Source of the DNA: Anaerolinea sp.
GTDB lineage: Bacteria > Chloroflexota > Anaerolineae > UBA4142
Direction: 5' to 3'
Assembly: GCA_020722265.1 (NCBI GenBank)
Contig: DYLA01000041.1
Location: forward strand, 1-17,852
DNA length: 17,852 nt
Shown: piece by piece, positions 4,129 to 17,816 of the stretch
How the letters are laid out: the number at the start of each line of letters is the position of its first letter
Numbering within the stretch: the first letter of the stretch is position 1
Program-made: the position numbers and the translations under genes
Notes under the pieces: model-generated
What the model was told of the DNA's origin: nothing
The model's input: only the letters and a program-made list of their open reading frames with translations
The model's database searches: none

Positions 4129-4347
4129 TGTTGCTGTAAGTTTGACTTTGTCCCGCGGGAGCGGATAAGAATCTTGGTTTTAGTCTCCCATTCATATTGA
4201 CGGCGCGCCGACTTGGCATTGGGAGGCGAGGTTCATCAGTATTTGCGTTTGGCTGATTGCTGTTGCCGTTGGAGGCGATAGATGGTTAGCTGTTGCTCGT
4301 GGGGCAAGTCTCGTTTTGGCGCACGATGGGGTGTAAGCCATATGAAA

Positions 4348-5987: not shown

Positions 5988-6025
5988 TTGGGTTGCAAGT
6001 TGGGCAATGGTGAGGGATGATAGGT

Positions 6026-7063
6026 ATGACCAAGAGATGTCCCAGCCCCACTCAATGTACCATAAACTTGCTGGCGCGCCGCAAAGAGGAATTTAGAGGC
6101 GCGACATGGAATCTGCTTTTGTCAGCCGGGCAGGATCTGTGCAAGGAAGATCAAGAGCGGGCTCGCCAAAGCTTTGACCAATCGCTCAAACTGGCTGAGG
6201 ATTTATCGGCGGTCAATGATCGGGACGCCGATTGCCTACGGGCGACGGCTTTAGCGTGCTTGGGTGCACTGGCTCTATGTCAAAATAAGGCGGATGACGC
6301 GCTCAGGTACTTTCAGCGGAGTGAAGCCGCCTTTGCTTCAAAGGGGGAGAGGTACGGTCAAGCTGTTGTGCTGTATGCGGAGGCGCACGCCTACAGGATC
6401 AAACAGGACTGGCGACGCGTTTTTTGTTGCTATGAGCAAAGTTCGCGCCTGTTGGCGTTTTTGGCGAGTGATCCGCTTACGGACTATACGCGTCAACTTG
6501 TGAGAGAAGAGCATCGCCAAACCGTTGCCGAATGGGAAAAGGATCTTGGCGTGGACGTGGAGCGAGGGGCAGGCAAGAGACTCGACTTCCGGTTGGGCTT
6601 CTTACCAGTCTTTGGTAAGATTGCGGCGGGTAATCCTTATCCTGTTCCAGAGGATGTAGAAAACTACATAGAAACGGATCGTTTTATCATTGATGGTAAG
6701 CCATATGCCATTGCCAAGAGCCAACATCTTACACTCAACTTTTCCCCTTACGTGATGTATGTAGCACTCTGTGTTAGCGGTGATAGCATGAATATGGCGG
6801 ACATAAATATCGGCGACTATGTGATCCTTCAAGTGCCATCGGCTGCCGGATTGCGGTTAGAACCGAAGACAGGCGATATAGTGGTGTTAGCATTTCCGGA
6901 GGAGAACACAGTGACGTTGAAACGTTGCCGGCGGAGTCCCAAGAAGATTACTTTCTATCCTGAGAGCACCAATCCCACGCACCTATCGTACGAATTCGAT
7001 GCGTCGCTAGATATACCTGTTAGGATCGTCGGCATCCACGTCGCCACCCTCAAGCCATTATGA
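6026..7063 (+). CDS. LexA-like S24 family autopeptidase with a non-HTH, Cys-rich TPR-like helical N-terminal domain (~190 aa)
   Basis: The C-terminal domain aligns motif-for-motif with LexA. LPVFGKIAAGNPYPV matches LPLVGRVAAGEPLLA, with the Ala-Gly scissile bond encoded at 6626-6631. The Ser nucleophile is in VSGDSM and the general-base Lys in TVTLKR. No HTH is recognisable in the N-terminal part. Start 6026 (GAGGGA 8 nt upstream) is preferred over 6017. The stop TGA 7061-7063 overlaps the psuG ATG. Confidence 0.8.
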   Translation: MTKRCPSPTQCTINLLARRKEEFRGATWNLLLSAGQDLCKEDQERARQSFDQSLKLAEDLSAVNDRDADCLRATALACLGALALCQNKADDALRYFQRSEAAFASKGERYGQAVVLYAEAHAYRIKQDWRRVFCCYEQSSRLLAFLASDPLTDYTRQLVREEHRQTVAEWEKDLGVDVERGAGKRLDFRLGFLPVFGKIAAGNPYPVPEDVENYIETDRFIIDGKPYAIAKSQHLTLNFSPYVMYVALCVSGDSMNMADINIGDYVILQVPSAAGLRLEPKTGDIVVLAFPEENTVTLKRCRRSPKKITFYPESTNPTHLSYEFDASLDIPVRIVGIHVATLKPL

Positions 7064-7983
7064 TGCTCCTCGCCCTCGAATCCACCCTCATCGCCCACGG
7101 ACTCCCGTATCCACACAACCTCGCCGCCGCGCGCGAACTGGAAGCCATCGCTCGCGCGCACGGCGCCCAGCCGCGTACCATCGCGATCATCGGCGGCGAA
7201 ATCAAAATCGGGTTGAGCGACGCGGAGTTGCAGCATCTCGCGCGGGCGCAGGGCGTGCTGAAACTCGCACGACGCGACCTCGCGATGGCGCTCGCACAGA
7301 AACGCGACGGCGCGACCACCGTCAGCGCGACGATGTTCCTCGCGCATCGCGCCGGCATCCGCGTTTTCGCCACCGGCGGGATTGGGGGCGTACACCGCAC
7401 GCCAAAGGATGAAGGCAGAAGGCAGAAGGATGAAAATGCCCCTTCGTCCTTCATCCCTCATCCTTCATCCTTCGATGTCTCTGCCGACCTTCCCGAACTC
7501 GCGCGCACTCCCGTCGCCGTCGTCTGCGCGGGCGCCAAAGCGATTCTCGATTTGCCCGCGACGCTCGAATGGCTAGAGACATTCGGCGTGCCGGTGCTCG
7601 GTTGGCAGACGGACGAATTCCCCGCGTTCTACTCGCGCGCGTCGGGCTTGCGCGTGCCCGCGCGCGTCGAGTCGGCGGAGGATGCCGCGCGCGTCATCCA
7701 GACACATTGGGAACTGGGCATGAGCAGCGGCGTCCTCGTCTGTGTGCCGATCCCGCACCAAGACGAGATTCCGCGCGCGGTGATCGAGCCGCACATCGAA
7801 CGCGCGCTGCGCGAGGCGGAAGAGCGACGCATCGTCGGCGGCGCGGTGACGCCGTTCGTGCTGGCGCGTTTGGCGGAGTTGACGCAAGGCGCGAGCGTGC
7901 GCGCGAACATCGCGCTGCTCAAGAACAACGTCGCCGTTGCGGCGGAAATCGCCCAAGCCCTGCAAGTTATTCGTCCAACCTGA
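7060..7983 (+). CDS. psuG: Pseudouridine-5'-phosphate glycosidase (PsuG / indigoidine synthase A-like); apparently N-terminally truncated, with a ~20-aa in-frame insertion
   Basis: LALESTLIAHGLPYP, FATGGIGGVHR, VVCAGAKAILDL..TLE.LETFGVPV and TPFVLARLAELT match the PsuG family. The ORF begins about 25 aa later than the recalled canonical PsuG sequence. An extra segment TPKDEGRRQKDENAPSSFIPHPSS lies between GGVHR and FDVSADL. Confidence 0.75.
   Translation: MMLLALESTLIAHGLPYPHNLAAARELEAIARAHGAQPRTIAIIGGEIKIGLSDAELQHLARAQGVLKLARRDLAMALAQKRDGATTVSATMFLAHRAGIRVFATGGIGGVHRTPKDEGRRQKDENAPSSFIPHPSSFDVSADLPELARTPVAVVCAGAKAILDLPATLEWLETFGVPVLGWQTDEFPAFYSRASGLRVPARVESAEDAARVIQTHWELGMSSGVLVCVPIPHQDEIPRAVIEPHIERALREAEERRIVGGAVTPFVLARLAELTQGASVRANIALLKNNVAVAAEIAQALQVIRPT
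7404..7474. repeat. AT-richer palindromic mini-element inserted in frame within psuG (GGATGAAGG/CCTTCATCC arm repeats)
   Basis: Left arm GGATGAAGG (7407-7415) and GGATGAAAA (7428-7436). Right arm CCTTCGTCC (7441-7449), CCTTCATCC (7448-7456) and CCTTCATCC (7462-7470). The arms are mutually complementary, centred on CCCC 7439-7442. Confidence 0.5.
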
Positions 7984-8009
7984 AACTTCAACCGGCAGCG
8001 GAGATTCAG

Positions 8010-11262: not shown

Positions 11263-11281
11263 TTCGATTTCAGATTTATGA

Positions 11282-11310
11282 TTGCGGATTTCCGATTTTG
11301 TGCGTATAAT
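11282..11310 (+). promoter_or_regulatory. Plus-strand promoter TTGCGG-N17-TATAAT; the TSS would fall 0-2 nt before the pncC ATG (leaderless)
   Basis: TTGCGG 11282-11287, spacer 17, TATAAT 11305-11310. The ATG of the next gene is at 11319 with no SD sequence. Confidence 0.4.
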
Positions 11311-11318
11311 GCCTGCCG

Positions 11319-11810
11319 ATGATTGACTGTAACGAACCGCTCGAAGTCGTCGTGGGCAGGTTGCTCGTCGAGAAAAAGCAGACGCTTGCCATCGCCGAAT
11401 CTTGCACCGGTGGCTTGCTCACGCACCGGCTCACGAACGTGCCCGGGAGTTCGGCGTACGTCATCGCCTCCGTCATCGCGTACGCCTACGAAGCCAAAGT
11501 CGCCGCGCTCGGCGTGTCCTGGGACACGCTCAACCGATTCGGCGCGGTCAGCGCGGAAACGGCAACCGCGATGGCGCGCGGCGCGCGCGCGAAATTCTCT
11601 GCTACGCTCGGCTTGGCGATTACTGGCATCGCGGGACCGGGAGGCGGCACGCCGGAAAAGCCGGTGGGTCTGGTGTACCTCGCGCTCGCGGACGCGGACG
11701 ATGTTATCGTTGAACGGCACCTTTGGAGCGGCGACCGCGTGCGGAACAAGGAGCAGAGCGCGCAAGCCGCGCTCGAATTGTTGTGCCGTCATCTAAAACG
11801 TAAAACGTGA
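11319..11810 (+). CDS. pncC: CinA C-terminal domain protein / nicotinamide-nucleotide amidohydrolase PncC
   Basis: LAIAESCTGGLL...SSAYVIASVIAYAYEAK...GLAITGIAGPGGGT..KPVGLVYLAL is the CinA_C signature. Confidence 0.8.
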   Translation: MIDCNEPLEVVVGRLLVEKKQTLAIAESCTGGLLTHRLTNVPGSSAYVIASVIAYAYEAKVAALGVSWDTLNRFGAVSAETATAMARGARAKFSATLGLAITGIAGPGGGTPEKPVGLVYLALADADDVIVERHLWSGDRVRNKEQSAQAALELLCRHLKRKT

Positions 11811-11829
11811 AACGAAAAAAGGAGCCGCC

Positions 11830-12675
11830 GTGAACATCTTCCAAGCCATCCTCCTGGGCATCGTGCAAGGTCTCACCGAGTTCATTCCGATTTCCAGTTC
11901 GGCGCACCTCGTCATCATTCCTTGGCTGTTCCAGTGGGACGAGCCCGGTCTCGCATTCGACGTGGCACTGCATCTGGGGACGCTCGTCGCGCTGCTTTGG
12001 TTTTTCGCGGCGGATTGGGCGCGGCTGTGGCGCGCCGGCGTCGCGAGCATCATCGAACGCAAGGTGGGCGACGATGTGGATCGCCGGCTGGCGTGGCTGC
12101 TGGCAGTCGGCACTATCCCAGGCGCGCTCGTGGGCGCCTTGGCGGAAAGCCAGGTCGAGGAGTTGTTTCACACGCCGAATGCGCCCCATCGCGCGGAGGC
12201 GATGGTCGCGATGGGTGTCATCATCGCGCTGTTAGGCGCGGCGCTCTTCGTCGCCGAACGGATCGCGCGCCACACGCGCTCGCTGAAACACGTTTCGCTC
12301 AAGGATGCGATTGTGATCGGTTGCGCGCAGGCGCTCGCGATTTTCCCAGGGGTCTCGCGCTCGGGCGCGACGATCACCGCCGGTCTCGCGCTCGGTTTGG
12401 AGCGCGCGGCTGCCGCGCGTTTTTCGTTCCTTCTCTCCGCGCCGATCATCGCGGGCGCGGGCGCCAAGAGCGCGTTCGATCTGGCGCGCGCGGGGATTGC
12501 GCCAGCGGAGTTGGCGCTCTTTGCCCTCGGCGCGCTAGCGGCGGCGGTCAGCGGTTATTTGTGCATCAGGTTCTTGCTCCGCTTTTTGCAGCGCCACTCG
12601 ACCGATGTCTTTGTGTACTATCGCTGGCTGCTCGCGGCGTTCATCATCGTCGTTGCGGTGATGCGGGGGAATTGA
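11830..12675 (+). CDS. uppP: Undecaprenyl-diphosphate phosphatase (BacA/UppP)
   Basis: GTG start with AAAAAAGGAG RBS. The N-terminus MNIFQAILLGIVQGLTEFIPISSSAHL is the UppP hallmark. Multi-TM. Confidence 0.9.
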   Translation: MNIFQAILLGIVQGLTEFIPISSSAHLVIIPWLFQWDEPGLAFDVALHLGTLVALLWFFAADWARLWRAGVASIIERKVGDDVDRRLAWLLAVGTIPGALVGALAESQVEELFHTPNAPHRAEAMVAMGVIIALLGAALFVAERIARHTRSLKHVSLKDAIVIGCAQALAIFPGVSRSGATITAGLALGLERAAAARFSFLLSAPIIAGAGAKSAFDLARAGIAPAELALFALGALAAAVSGYLCIRFLLRFLQRHSTDVFVYYRWLLAAFIIVVAVMRGN

Positions 12676-12680
12676 TCGTC

Positions 12681-13478
12681 GTGCTAAGAATTTTACCGCT
12701 GGGATTGTTCGCCGTGCTGCTCGCCGCGTGTGCGGCAATGCCAACGCCGCGTGCGCCGACGCGGCTCACGTTCGCCGGTTCCGATTCGATGGAGTCGCTC
12801 GCGCGATCGCTCGCCCACGCGTACGCCGAGTCGCATTCCGGGGTGTCGTTCACGGTGCAGACATCGAACTCGGCGAACGGTTTGCGCGCCGCGCGCGAAA
12901 TCTCCGGGACGATTGGAATGGTCGCCCGCGCGATCCAGCCCGCCGAACTGGAGCGGTTGCGCGCGGTCGTGATGGCGCGCGATGGCATCGCCATCATCGT
13001 CAACAAGAGCAATCCCATCAACGCGATTATGCGCGCGCAAATCGTCGAAGTGTTTGCCGGGCAAATCCTCACGTGGCCCACCGGCGCGCTCGCCGGCAAG
13101 AGCATCGTCGTCGTCAGCCGCGAGGAGGGGTCGGGGACGCGTGACGCGTTCGAGGCGATGGTGATGGGGGGGACGCGCGTGACGCGCACGGCGGTGGTGA
13201 TGCCGAATCAAGCCGCGATGGTGGATTTCGTCGCGCGCACGCCGGAGGCGATCGGCTATTGTTCGATGGGCGCGGTTACCCAAGACGTGCGCGCGCTGGT
13301 CGTGGACGACGTGCTGCTATCACCCCAGACCGTCGAAAGCAGACAGTATCCGTTCATCCGCGCGTTTGCGTTCGTCATTCCGCAGCCGGCGTCGCCGGCG
13401 GTCGAGGATTTCGTCGCGTTCGCGCTCGGCGCGGAGGGGCAGCGGATTGTCGCGCAAAAGTTTGGGAGAGCGCCGTGA
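12681..13478 (+). CDS. PstS-like phosphate-binding periplasmic lipoprotein (PBP superfamily), orphan, with no pstCAB adjacent
   Basis: GTG 12681 lies 5 nt after the uppP stop. Signal/lipobox LFAVLLAACAA. RLTFAGSDSMESLARSLA...GTIGMVARA...SREEGSGTRDAFE resembles the PstS family. The long track ORF from 11922 is an out-of-frame overlap with uppP. Confidence 0.65.
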   Translation: MLRILPLGLFAVLLAACAAMPTPRAPTRLTFAGSDSMESLARSLAHAYAESHSGVSFTVQTSNSANGLRAAREISGTIGMVARAIQPAELERLRAVVMARDGIAIIVNKSNPINAIMRAQIVEVFAGQILTWPTGALAGKSIVVVSREEGSGTRDAFEAMVMGGTRVTRTAVVMPNQAAMVDFVARTPEAIGYCSMGAVTQDVRALVVDDVLLSPQTVESRQYPFIRAFAFVIPQPASPAVEDFVAFALGAEGQRIVAQKFGRAP

Positions 13479-13511
13479 AGACCTGGAAGGTCTCCAAGAC
13501 CTTCCAGGTCT
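13479..13511. repeat. Palindromic hairpin repeat, copy 2: AGACCTGGAAGGTCT-cca-AGACCTTCCAGGTCT, immediately after the pstS-like stop codon
   Basis: Perfect 15-bp inverted repeat with a 3-nt loop, starting 1 nt after TGA 13476-13478. A 37-nt stretch is identical to copy 3. Confidence 0.85.
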
Positions 13512-16772: not shown

Positions 16773-16805
16773 AGACCTGGAAGGTCTCCAAGACCTTCCA
16801 GGTCT
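16773..16805. repeat. Palindromic hairpin repeat, copy 3, identical to copy 2, ~35 nt upstream of the ATPase start codon
   Basis: AGACCTGGAAGGTCT-cca-AGACCTTCCAGGTCT, read directly. Confidence 0.85.
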
Positions 16806-17782: not shown

Positions 17783-17816
17783 AGACCTGTCAGGTTTCCA
17801 AAAACCTGACAGGTCT
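17783..17816. repeat. Variant palindromic hairpin, copy 4: AGACCTGTCAGGT-ttccaaaa-ACCTGACAGGTCT, right after the ATPase stop codon
   Basis: 13-bp perfect inverted repeat with an 8-nt loop. It shares the AGACCTG...CAGGTCT termini with copies 1-3. Confidence 0.75.

Follow-up and report, generated by a model that had tools for sequence, protein, structure and literature searches.

The stretch of DNA analysed here (the window) comprises 17,852 nucleotides of contig DYLA01000041.1 from Anaerolinea sp. (assembly GCA_020722265.1), and carries psuG, a gene predicted to encode pseudouridine-5'-phosphate glycosidase. Inside the conserved core of this gene lies a 69-bp imperfect palindrome, the heptamer hairpin element, whose two arms are built of tandem 7-nt units and which is translated in frame as part of the enzyme. 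The features at this site are listed below, with the basis of the assignment in brackets.

7060..7983, + strand: psuG, predicted pseudouridine-5'-phosphate glycosidase, an intact open reading frame (ORF) of 307 codons (Pfam PF04227, structures, AlphaFold)
7393..7395, + strand: His112 codon, directly upstream of the insert; E. coli His137, Arabidopsis His156, ~5 Å from the 5'-phosphate (PMC10761123)
7399..7470, + strand: codons T114–S137, the 24-residue loop between R113 and F138 (HMMER alignments, predicted local distance difference test, pLDDT)
7405–7473, + strand: heptamer hairpin element, 69 bp, imperfectly palindromic, with four GGATGAA-type heptamers before the 8-nt loop and four of the TTCATCC type after it
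7405..7434, + strand: 5' arm of purine-rich heptamers, (AA)GGATGAA GGCAGAA GGCAGAA GGATGAA (sequence, Tandem Repeats Finder)
7435..7442, + strand: hairpin loop AATGCCCC (minimum-free-energy structure)
7443..7473, + strand: pyrimidine-rich 3' arm, TTCGTCC TTCATCC CTCATCC TTCATCC TTC (sequence, Tandem Repeats Finder, minimum-free-energy fold)
7474..7476, + strand: Asp139 codon, directly downstream of the insert; E. coli Asp145, Arabidopsis Asp164, Mn2+ ligand (PMC10761123)

Anatomy and fold of the hairpin element

An earlier reading of this DNA from its letters alone (the sequence-only reading) had described a hairpin made of complementary 9-mers, and each of these was found in place (GGATGAAGG at 7407, GGATGAAAA at 7428, CCTTCGTCC at 7441, and CCTTCATCC at 7448 and 7462). 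With at most one mismatch, the 9-mer occurs nine times in the window against 3.9 expected, five of the occurrences falling within 64 nt. The tandem-heptamer make-up of both arms had not been spotted at that stage. Tandem Repeats Finder reports period 7 in each of them, with 2.7 copies at 7411–7429 and 4.7 copies at 7441–7473, and as head-to-tail 7-nt units they belong to the heptanucleotide class of simple sequence repeats, or short tandemly repeated repetitive (STRR) sequences. Purines account for 87% of the 5' arm and 13% of the 3' arm, and the last TTC of the latter doubles as the codon of the conserved Phe138. The segment is AT-richer than its surroundings, as had been proposed, with a GC content of 49.3% vs 67.4% in the rest of psuG. 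The RNA fold of 7395–7485 has an energy of −36.9 kcal/mol, compared with −20.3 ± 2.9 kcal/mol for 200 dinucleotide-preserving shuffles, none of which reached the native value (z = −5.83), and the suggested capacity to form a hairpin is thereby confirmed.

The element is translated as TPKDEGRRQKDENAPSSFIPHPSS between GGIGGVHR and FDVSADL, in agreement with the sequence-only reading. Direct reading of the sequence shows that a perfect (GGATGAA)3 array contains TGA in all reading frames, and that a GGCAGAA or GGCGGAA variant takes TGA out of the frame in use. Since the same sequence is found in two further independent assemblies, L001 (Logan SRR1559028) and L202 (GCA_975271335.1; 99.73% identical to the window over 17.8 kb), it is no assembly artefact. 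The window (WIN) and L202 are separated by 48 single-base differences, of which two lie in the 3' arm of the hairpin (7446 and 7466), where about 0.2 would be expected; both are transitions, and one replaces Ser by Leu. This strain-level excess is suggestive only.

The host gene and its active site

The psuG product matches PF04227 (Indigoidine_A) with E = 1.9e-118 and 395.5 bits (cut-off 25.2), residues 4–299 corresponding to model positions 13–290, and it matches the solved PsuG/PUMY structures at E = 1e-80 to 1e-82. The catalytic residues E7, K68, H112, D139, S141, D143, K160 and N283 are all present. Lys166, Glu31, Asp145, His137, Lys93, Ser147 and Asn289 of the E. coli enzyme correspond to K160, E7, D139, H112, K68, S141 and N283 of the window protein; K160, E7, D139, K68, S141 and N283 are invariant across 122 aligned sequences, and His112 is invariant in the 71-sequence alignment A1. 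The E. coli PsuG sequence on which the numbering is based agrees with the 4GIJ alignment. In PsuG/PUMY, Asp145 is the Mn2+ ligand, His137, Lys93 and Ser147 form the phosphate site, and Lys166 and Glu31 are catalytic (PMC10761123).

The loop between R113 and F138 has 24 residues in the window protein vs five in E. coli PsuG. According to HMMER alignments to 8K05, 8K06 and 4GIJ, it is exactly 19 residues (57 nt) longer than in the solved E. coli and Arabidopsis enzymes, which bears out the lengthening by ~20 residues estimated earlier. Its position corresponds to the "protruding loop" of Arabidopsis PUMY, located beside the active-site opening (PMC10761123). Mapping on an AlphaFold2 model of the window PsuG (mean pLDDT 90.5, predicted template modelling score 0.89), as the sequence-only reading had advised, shows a coil of low confidence at the insert, in a fold that is confidently predicted elsewhere; the insert is the sole poorly defined part of the model, with pLDDT blocks of 69, 54 and 59 and without secondary structure.

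It had also been suggested that psuG may be a decaying, 5'-truncated pseudogene, in which case the insertion would have disrupted it. In favour of this, the ORF lacks ~24 N-terminal residues found in E. coli PsuG, and the Pfam match starts only at model position 13. However, most of the 120 closest homologues have an equally short N-terminus, the ATG is preceded by an in-frame stop 13 codons upstream, and the reading frame is intact, with all catalytic residues conserved and a confident predicted fold. The end of the S24-peptidase gene overlaps the start of psuG as ATGA, the same adjacent, overlapping layout occurs in orthologues, and the gene order Band_7, S24, psuG, a 219-residue ORF, clpC, cinA, bacA and PBP is largely kept among them. 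Outside the insert, identity at the first, second and third codon positions among five orthologues is 0.85/0.88/0.55, which indicates purifying selection on the PsuG protein. The gene is intact and under purifying selection, neither truncated nor decaying, and the pseudogene explanation deserves almost no credence.

Age and nucleotide-level constraint of the insert

The window and the orthologues L203, L004, L204 and L206, with protein identities of 76–85%, share a 75-nt insert with identical boundaries and conserved synteny, and the insertion is therefore not recent. Nucleotide identity within the insert is 0.67–0.89, compared with 0.37–0.69 at four-fold degenerate sites in the rest of psuG. 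The three codon positions of the insert are equally conserved (0.78/0.78/0.80), in contrast to the pattern elsewhere in the gene, and this equality indicates that the constraint, or a homogenising process, acts on DNA or RNA and not on the peptide. In these orthologues 84% of the cells remain paired, with compensatory changes on both sides of three pairs. The sense-strand mismatches, small in number, are mainly A·C and not G·U, so that this test of RNA-level polarity lends no support to selection on the sense RNA.

The same site in related genomes

Among the 120 closest PsuGs (68–99% identity, from Chloroflexi/Anaerolineae-type metagenome-assembled genomes), the length of the loop spans 2 to 49 residues, and about half of them have a loop of at least 20 residues. 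PsuGs at ≤60% identity have 4–11 residues at the site and no hairpin. According to the sequence-only reading, loops of similar length with unrelated nucleotide sequence would speak against an inserted element. Such loops were literally what the alignment of homologues revealed; yet all 16 distinct long loops for which DNA is available are tandem-heptamer hairpins, with z between −2.8 and −12.2, whereas short loops and a tandem-only loop give no significant hairpin in the fold z-test. This uniformity indicates that a hairpin has long persisted at the site while its sequence turned over fast, and that the loop is not simply a variable stretch of protein. The heptamers of the loops are as follows.

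GGATGAA: WIN, L203, L004, L204, L206, and the nested forms L006, L205, L207, L208
GTAGGCA: L002, L265
CAGTCAA: L005
CAGTAAT: L009
GTTCAGT: L011–L013
GACGACA: L010
CAGTCGC: L210

Every psuG 5' arm has a CAG or ATG core at 7-nt spacing. In L007 and L008 the site holds GTCAGCG five times in tandem, with neither inverted copy nor hairpin. Other relatives have short, odd loops, e.g., GELP, GNPG, HAG or TGNELLPQ, and no proto-heptamer sequence was found in the loop of the short-loop orthologue L209. Some orthologues show nested additions, such as a small TCCTTCGACTCCGCTCAGGA hairpin within the loop, and L207 has mirrored insertions in both arms.

A separate repeat family, with the core CCCTTCGACTCCGCTCAGGG, was observed in the same gene. 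It forms a second in-frame insert (L208:3423–3460, L210:1406–1443), translated as PSPFDSAQGGSGQ, which occupies another loop of PsuG (around residue 64 in the window protein), and a small hairpin related to it is nested in the heptamer-hairpin loop of L006, L205, L207 and L208. Directly upstream of the full-length psuG of L210, positions 387–1170 hold a 57-residue psuG fragment, a DUF4258 gene and an 87-residue ORF, which may represent an insertion that duplicated the 5' end of psuG.

Turnover of the heptamer type

Loop types were compared on a bootstrapped neighbour-joining tree with the loop masked, and identities were computed outside the loop. The following closely related proteins differ at the site.

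P0027 / P0038: GGATGAA type / type B; bootstrap 98%; identity outside the loop 92.7%
P0036 / P0062: GGATGAA type / type D; bootstrap 92% (4-member clade); identity 94.5%
P0002 / P0006: GGATGAA type / GTAGGCA type; bootstrap 74% (3-member clade); identity 94.2%
P0071 / P0084: type C / short loop; bootstrap 89%; identity 90.4%
P0099 / P0112, P0116, P0119: 43-residue hairpin-type loop / 4-residue loops; bootstrap 100%; identity 87.6–89.1% (P0112, P0116)

The presence of different heptamer types in proteins that are 92–94.5% identical indicates fast turnover. A single clade of GGATGAA-type inserts was rejected, as they are polyphyletic on this tree.

The pair L203 and L265 is instructive with regard to the mode of change. 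Their psuG genes are 87–98% identical on both sides of the insert (90-nt windows), and because of this high identity on both flanks a recombination breakpoint at the hairpin was rejected. The two hairpins share the 4+4 heptamer layout and its register, and 18 of 28 positions agree between their 5' arms, which weakens the idea that each heptamer type goes back to a separate insertion of an unrelated element. In L265 the 3' arm consists of three perfect TGCCTAC copies, the complement of its own first 5' heptamer. Such a pattern is the product expected from slippage within an array combined with arm-to-arm copying. Template switching is known to create and maintain hairpins and to homogenise inverted-repeat arms (PMC8794818), including in coding DNA (PMC8604942).

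A dispersed family of heptamer hairpins

One genome per species was scanned with the pattern GAAGGATGAA-N(0–30)-TTCATCCTTC, with 10-nt arms. At least 120 loci in other genomes match it, compared with a chance expectation of ~17 by our own estimate under uniform base composition, and nearly all of the matches listed have longer heptamer arms. Hosts among the matches listed include Chloroflexota (Anaerolineales, Chloroflexia, Herpetosiphon, Thermoflexus, Ardenticatenaceae, Caldilineaceae), Acidobacteriota (Pyrinomonadaceae, Blastocatellia, Thermoanaerobaculia), Planctomycetota, Verrucomicrobiota and a few others, several genomes having 2–3 of these matches each. Several single genomes or contigs hold 2–6 copies. 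Among viral contigs in IMG/VR, 53 further hairpin stretches were found, including L216, with five copies in 6.7 kb at gene boundaries; in L250, two copies are identical, loop included.

Family members have a modal architecture of four heptamers per arm (4+4), a median loop of 17 nt and flanks that are typically AAA...TTT, with GGCGGAA/TTCCGCC and GGATGAG/CTCATCC as recurrent variants. The window copy fits this architecture with its 4+4 units and 8-nt loop. Its variant heptamers recur as well: among the family arms listed GGCAGAA occurs 4 times and CTCATCC 19 times, the latter as the third 3' unit not only in the window, but also in L085, L127, L144, L153, L155 and L170, other phyla included. 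The 31-nt 5' arm of the orthologue L004 is identical to the 5' arm of the acidobacterial copy L085. The segment 7405–7473 of the window belongs to this dispersed family.

Most copies are intergenic, and several lie in frame in real genes, where all of them read as KDEGGRMKDE...SSFILHPSS. The domain matches that contain an in-frame copy are Pkinase (in the activation loop), SDR (adh_short_C2) and Molybdopterin (in two genomes, at one and the same site); the inserts of PriA, UvrA and a HemN-like protein are placed between such matches instead. The sequence-only reading had proposed an in-frame insertion resembling repetitive extragenic palindromic (REP) sequences or MITEs (miniature inverted-repeat transposable elements). 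The proposal is supported in part: the element is a hairpin-forming repeat that adds a surface loop in frame, and its family comprises these ≥120 loci and 53 viral stretches; the notion of a recent or private event is contradicted by the 75-nt insert shared by orthologues of 76–85% identity. A literature search retrieved no earlier description of the element sequence or of heptamer hairpins in these phyla.

Many hairpins of unrelated heptamers exist in the same genomes as the family copies. Period-7 arrays reach 2.5 per 10 kb in the loci of the psuG clade, against ≤0.17 for periods 5, 6 and 8–11 (at least 15-fold), in line with the excess of heptameric repeats that has been reported for bacteria (PMC4692102).

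Several further observations concern the family. Molybdopterin-oxidoreductase genes of two different genomes (L143:5624–7414, L186:192–1994) share the site of a GGATGAA hairpin but not its loop, which also holds for a pair of unannotated ORFs (L082/L172), and there may thus be persistent in-frame hairpin sites in genes besides psuG. In one acidobacterial genome, GTGATAA hairpins and GGGTGCT hairpins each occur twice (L133/L134, L134/L139), with matching arms and different loops, and L139:7022–7096 is a hairpin of GTAGGCA, the heptamer found in the psuG loops of L002 and L265. L215, L238, L246, L247 and L263 derive from one 31.8-kb contig. The density of the hairpin is very high in certain viral or proviral contigs, and the family may spread between phyla by way of viruses.

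Origin and maintenance of the psuG hairpin

We consider it probable that the psuG element is an old, resident copy of the dispersed heptamer-hairpin family, located in frame in the protruding loop of PsuG and kept as a nucleic-acid hairpin. A family member would have entered this length-tolerant loop through a single insertion in the ancestor of the Anaerolineae-like clade, and not recently. Its translation, a disordered, hydrophilic, Pro/Ser-containing loop 19 residues longer than that of the solved enzymes, is presumably tolerated by the enzyme and neutral for its function. What is preserved would be the nucleic-acid hairpin rather than the peptide: replication slippage in the arrays, together with template switches from one arm to the other (quasipalindrome correction), could retain arm complementarity and at the same time change the heptamer type quickly, and occasional deletion could leave the short, odd loops behind.

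Several points weigh against this explanation. No second copy of the element is present within the 17.8-kb window. No target-site duplication was seen in a non-systematic check by eye of the window copy, the in-frame copies and the L250 duplicates, and no transposase or mobilising gene was seen linked to the family, nor a candidate parent element, for which no systematic search was made; we infer mobility of the family from its dispersal and duplicate copies. The covariation among GGATGAA-type orthologues is modest, with 26 of 500 shuffles reaching it, and selection for a function of the RNA or DNA would explain the conservation at the nucleotide level equally well. Furthermore, the psuG heptamers of L002 and L265 resemble those of the acidobacterial L139 hairpin, so these loops could stem from re-insertion instead of change in place.

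One alternative is that no mobile element was ever involved: a native short loop gained a heptamer array by slippage and then an inverted copy by template switch, and the likeness to hairpins elsewhere reflects a shared mutational preference for certain heptamers. In favour of this, L007 and L008 have tandem units without a hairpin, the period-7 excess in these genomes is strong, a CAG or ATG core at 7-nt spacing is common to all psuG 5' arms, and the arms have been homogenised independently, as L210 and L265 illustrate with their perfect 3' arrays. On the other hand, the GGATGAA-type arms match dispersed copies in other phyla, variant positions included, single contigs contain duplicate copies identical through the loop, and the short-loop L209 has no proto-heptamer. 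Origin in place is unlikely in our judgement. Less probable still is that selection, and not mutational bias, keeps the pairing, be it as an mRNA stem-loop involved in translation, decay or processing, or as a DNA cruciform or protein-binding site. The third codon positions are conserved in the insert (0.80 vs 0.55 elsewhere), compensatory changes are seen in three pairs, 16 of 16 long loops can still form a hairpin despite total sequence change, and about half of the clade retains one, all of which would fit a selected structure. Nevertheless, Rfam 15 gave only generic-hairpin matches to microRNA-precursor models for 7000–8000, at 21–24 bits against gathering thresholds of 91–168, a terminator/promoter scan found the psuG copy unlike a terminator on both strands, the mismatches have the A·C polarity described above, the hairpin has been lost in many close relatives, and the same family turns up both between genes and inside unrelated ones.

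A lineage-specific functional protein loop, for instance a lid over the active site with incidental hairpin potential, would explain why the insert sits between two active-site residues in a loop that flanks the active-site opening. This explanation seems highly improbable, as there is no codon-position signature of peptide selection, the loops of close relatives vary in both sequence and length (2 to 49 residues), the AlphaFold model is disordered at the insert, and the same peptide occurs in unrelated proteins.

Beyond psuG, heptamer hairpins might represent an undescribed class of selfish or structural DNA, distributed across phyla (Chloroflexota, Acidobacteriota, Planctomycetota and some viruses), which colonises genes in frame and corrects itself. 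We put this forward tentatively, as a possibility with somewhat less than even prospects.

Comparison with known repeats

A close parallel is offered by the Rickettsia palindromic elements (RPEs), in-frame palindromes of ~100–150 bp in housekeeping genes (Ogata et al. 2000, 2002, as summarised in PMC10969869). Both are dispersed palindromes located in frame in unrelated genes, translated and apparently compatible with the fold of the host protein. RPEs, however, are confined to Rickettsia, encode family-specific conserved peptides and have no tandem heptamers, whereas the present element has 69 bp, arms of 7-nt tandem units and a variable loop, belongs to a family of several phyla and, in its psuG copy, is constrained at the nucleotide level. 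It works like an RPE but is set apart from these by size, Chloroflexota-type host and architecture.

REP sequences and REPINs are likewise short, imperfect, high-copy palindromes, mostly intergenic at gene ends, and doublets of hairpins separated by a variable spacer are common to them and the present family (PMC3116915; PMC3733652). They differ in having a GTAG/CGTC head, a link to REP-associated tyrosine transposases (RAYTs) and no heptamer arrays. The arms described here begin with AAAGGATGAA, and neither GTAG nor CGTC heads the window copy or the family arms; nor was a linked RAYT seen, no search aimed at RAYT genes having been made. REPs are extragenic by definition; the window copy lies inside psuG, although most family members are intergenic. 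MITEs (PMC10969869) resemble the element in being small, non-coding and multi-copy and in having inverted repeats, with occasional in-frame fusions, but here there is no evident target-site duplication and no known parent insertion sequence, and the arms are internally repetitive.

Heptanucleotide repeats, such as the cyanobacterial STRR sequences, GGGAATC of Xanthomonas and GGGGAYT of Nostoc, share the tandem 7-nt units, the over-representation relative to other periods and the variable copy number, and their arrays sometimes form inverted pairs able to make stem-loops (PMC4692102). They have been described as intergenic and G-quadruplex-prone, and that account (PMC4692102) mentions no arrays residing in frame in enzymes, no sequence families spanning phyla and no site that persists within one gene. 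Quasipalindrome template switching (PMC8794818; PMC8604942) would account for arm homogenisation, apparent compensatory changes in one step and hairpin persistence without selection. It is a mutational process rather than an element, and patterns such as the 3' arm of L265 suggest its action here.

If the psuG element is indeed a resident family copy, in-frame palindromic repeats in conserved enzymes would span several large environmental phyla instead of being a rickettsial oddity, with arms made of tandem heptamers. Dozens of syntenic psuG orthologues would then show one hairpin being kept, reshaped, expanded, nested or deleted, which would make both hairpin maintenance, by template switching or selection, and the conversion of repeats into protein loops testable on natural data. 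Odd, low-complexity peptides like KDEGGRMKDE...SSFILHPSS in metagenome-derived proteins should in that case be regarded as translated repeats, neither as domains nor as evidence of pseudogenes. Should the cross-phylum class prove real, its sequence would be translation-compatible and protein-coding palindromes would reach well beyond Rickettsia; the active-site loop of psuG would be a natural record of long persistence with sequence turnover and retained pairing. Either a hitherto unknown hairpin-specific mobilising activity or a purely replicative route to new protein loops, through slippage and template switching, would have to exist.

Other repeats and neighbouring genes in the window

The window contains a separate REP-like palindrome, AGACCTGGAAGGTCT-N3-7-AGACCTTCCAGGTCT, three times (1281–1317, 13479–13511 and 16773–16805), and a variant (AGACCTGTCAGGTTT...AAACCTGACAGGTCT) at 17783–17816, near the window end. 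The copies at 1281–1317 and 13479–13511 begin just after the stops of the ORFs 195–1274 and 11922–13478, and that at 16773–16805 lies between called genes. Two tandem heptamer arrays without inverted partner flank cinA: GATTTCN-type units (4.9 copies) at 11265–11298, upstream of the gene, and TAAAACG units (3.7 copies) at 11794–11819, at the cinA/bacA junction. Similar units make up a heptamer hairpin at 4158–4236 of the relative L265. The S24-peptidase gene (6017–7063), whose end overlaps the start of psuG, has a lower GC content of 43–50% around 6600–7000, and the region upstream of psuG is only ~40–65% identical between L203 and L265, compared with 87–98% for psuG; this gene may be fast-evolving or exchanged.

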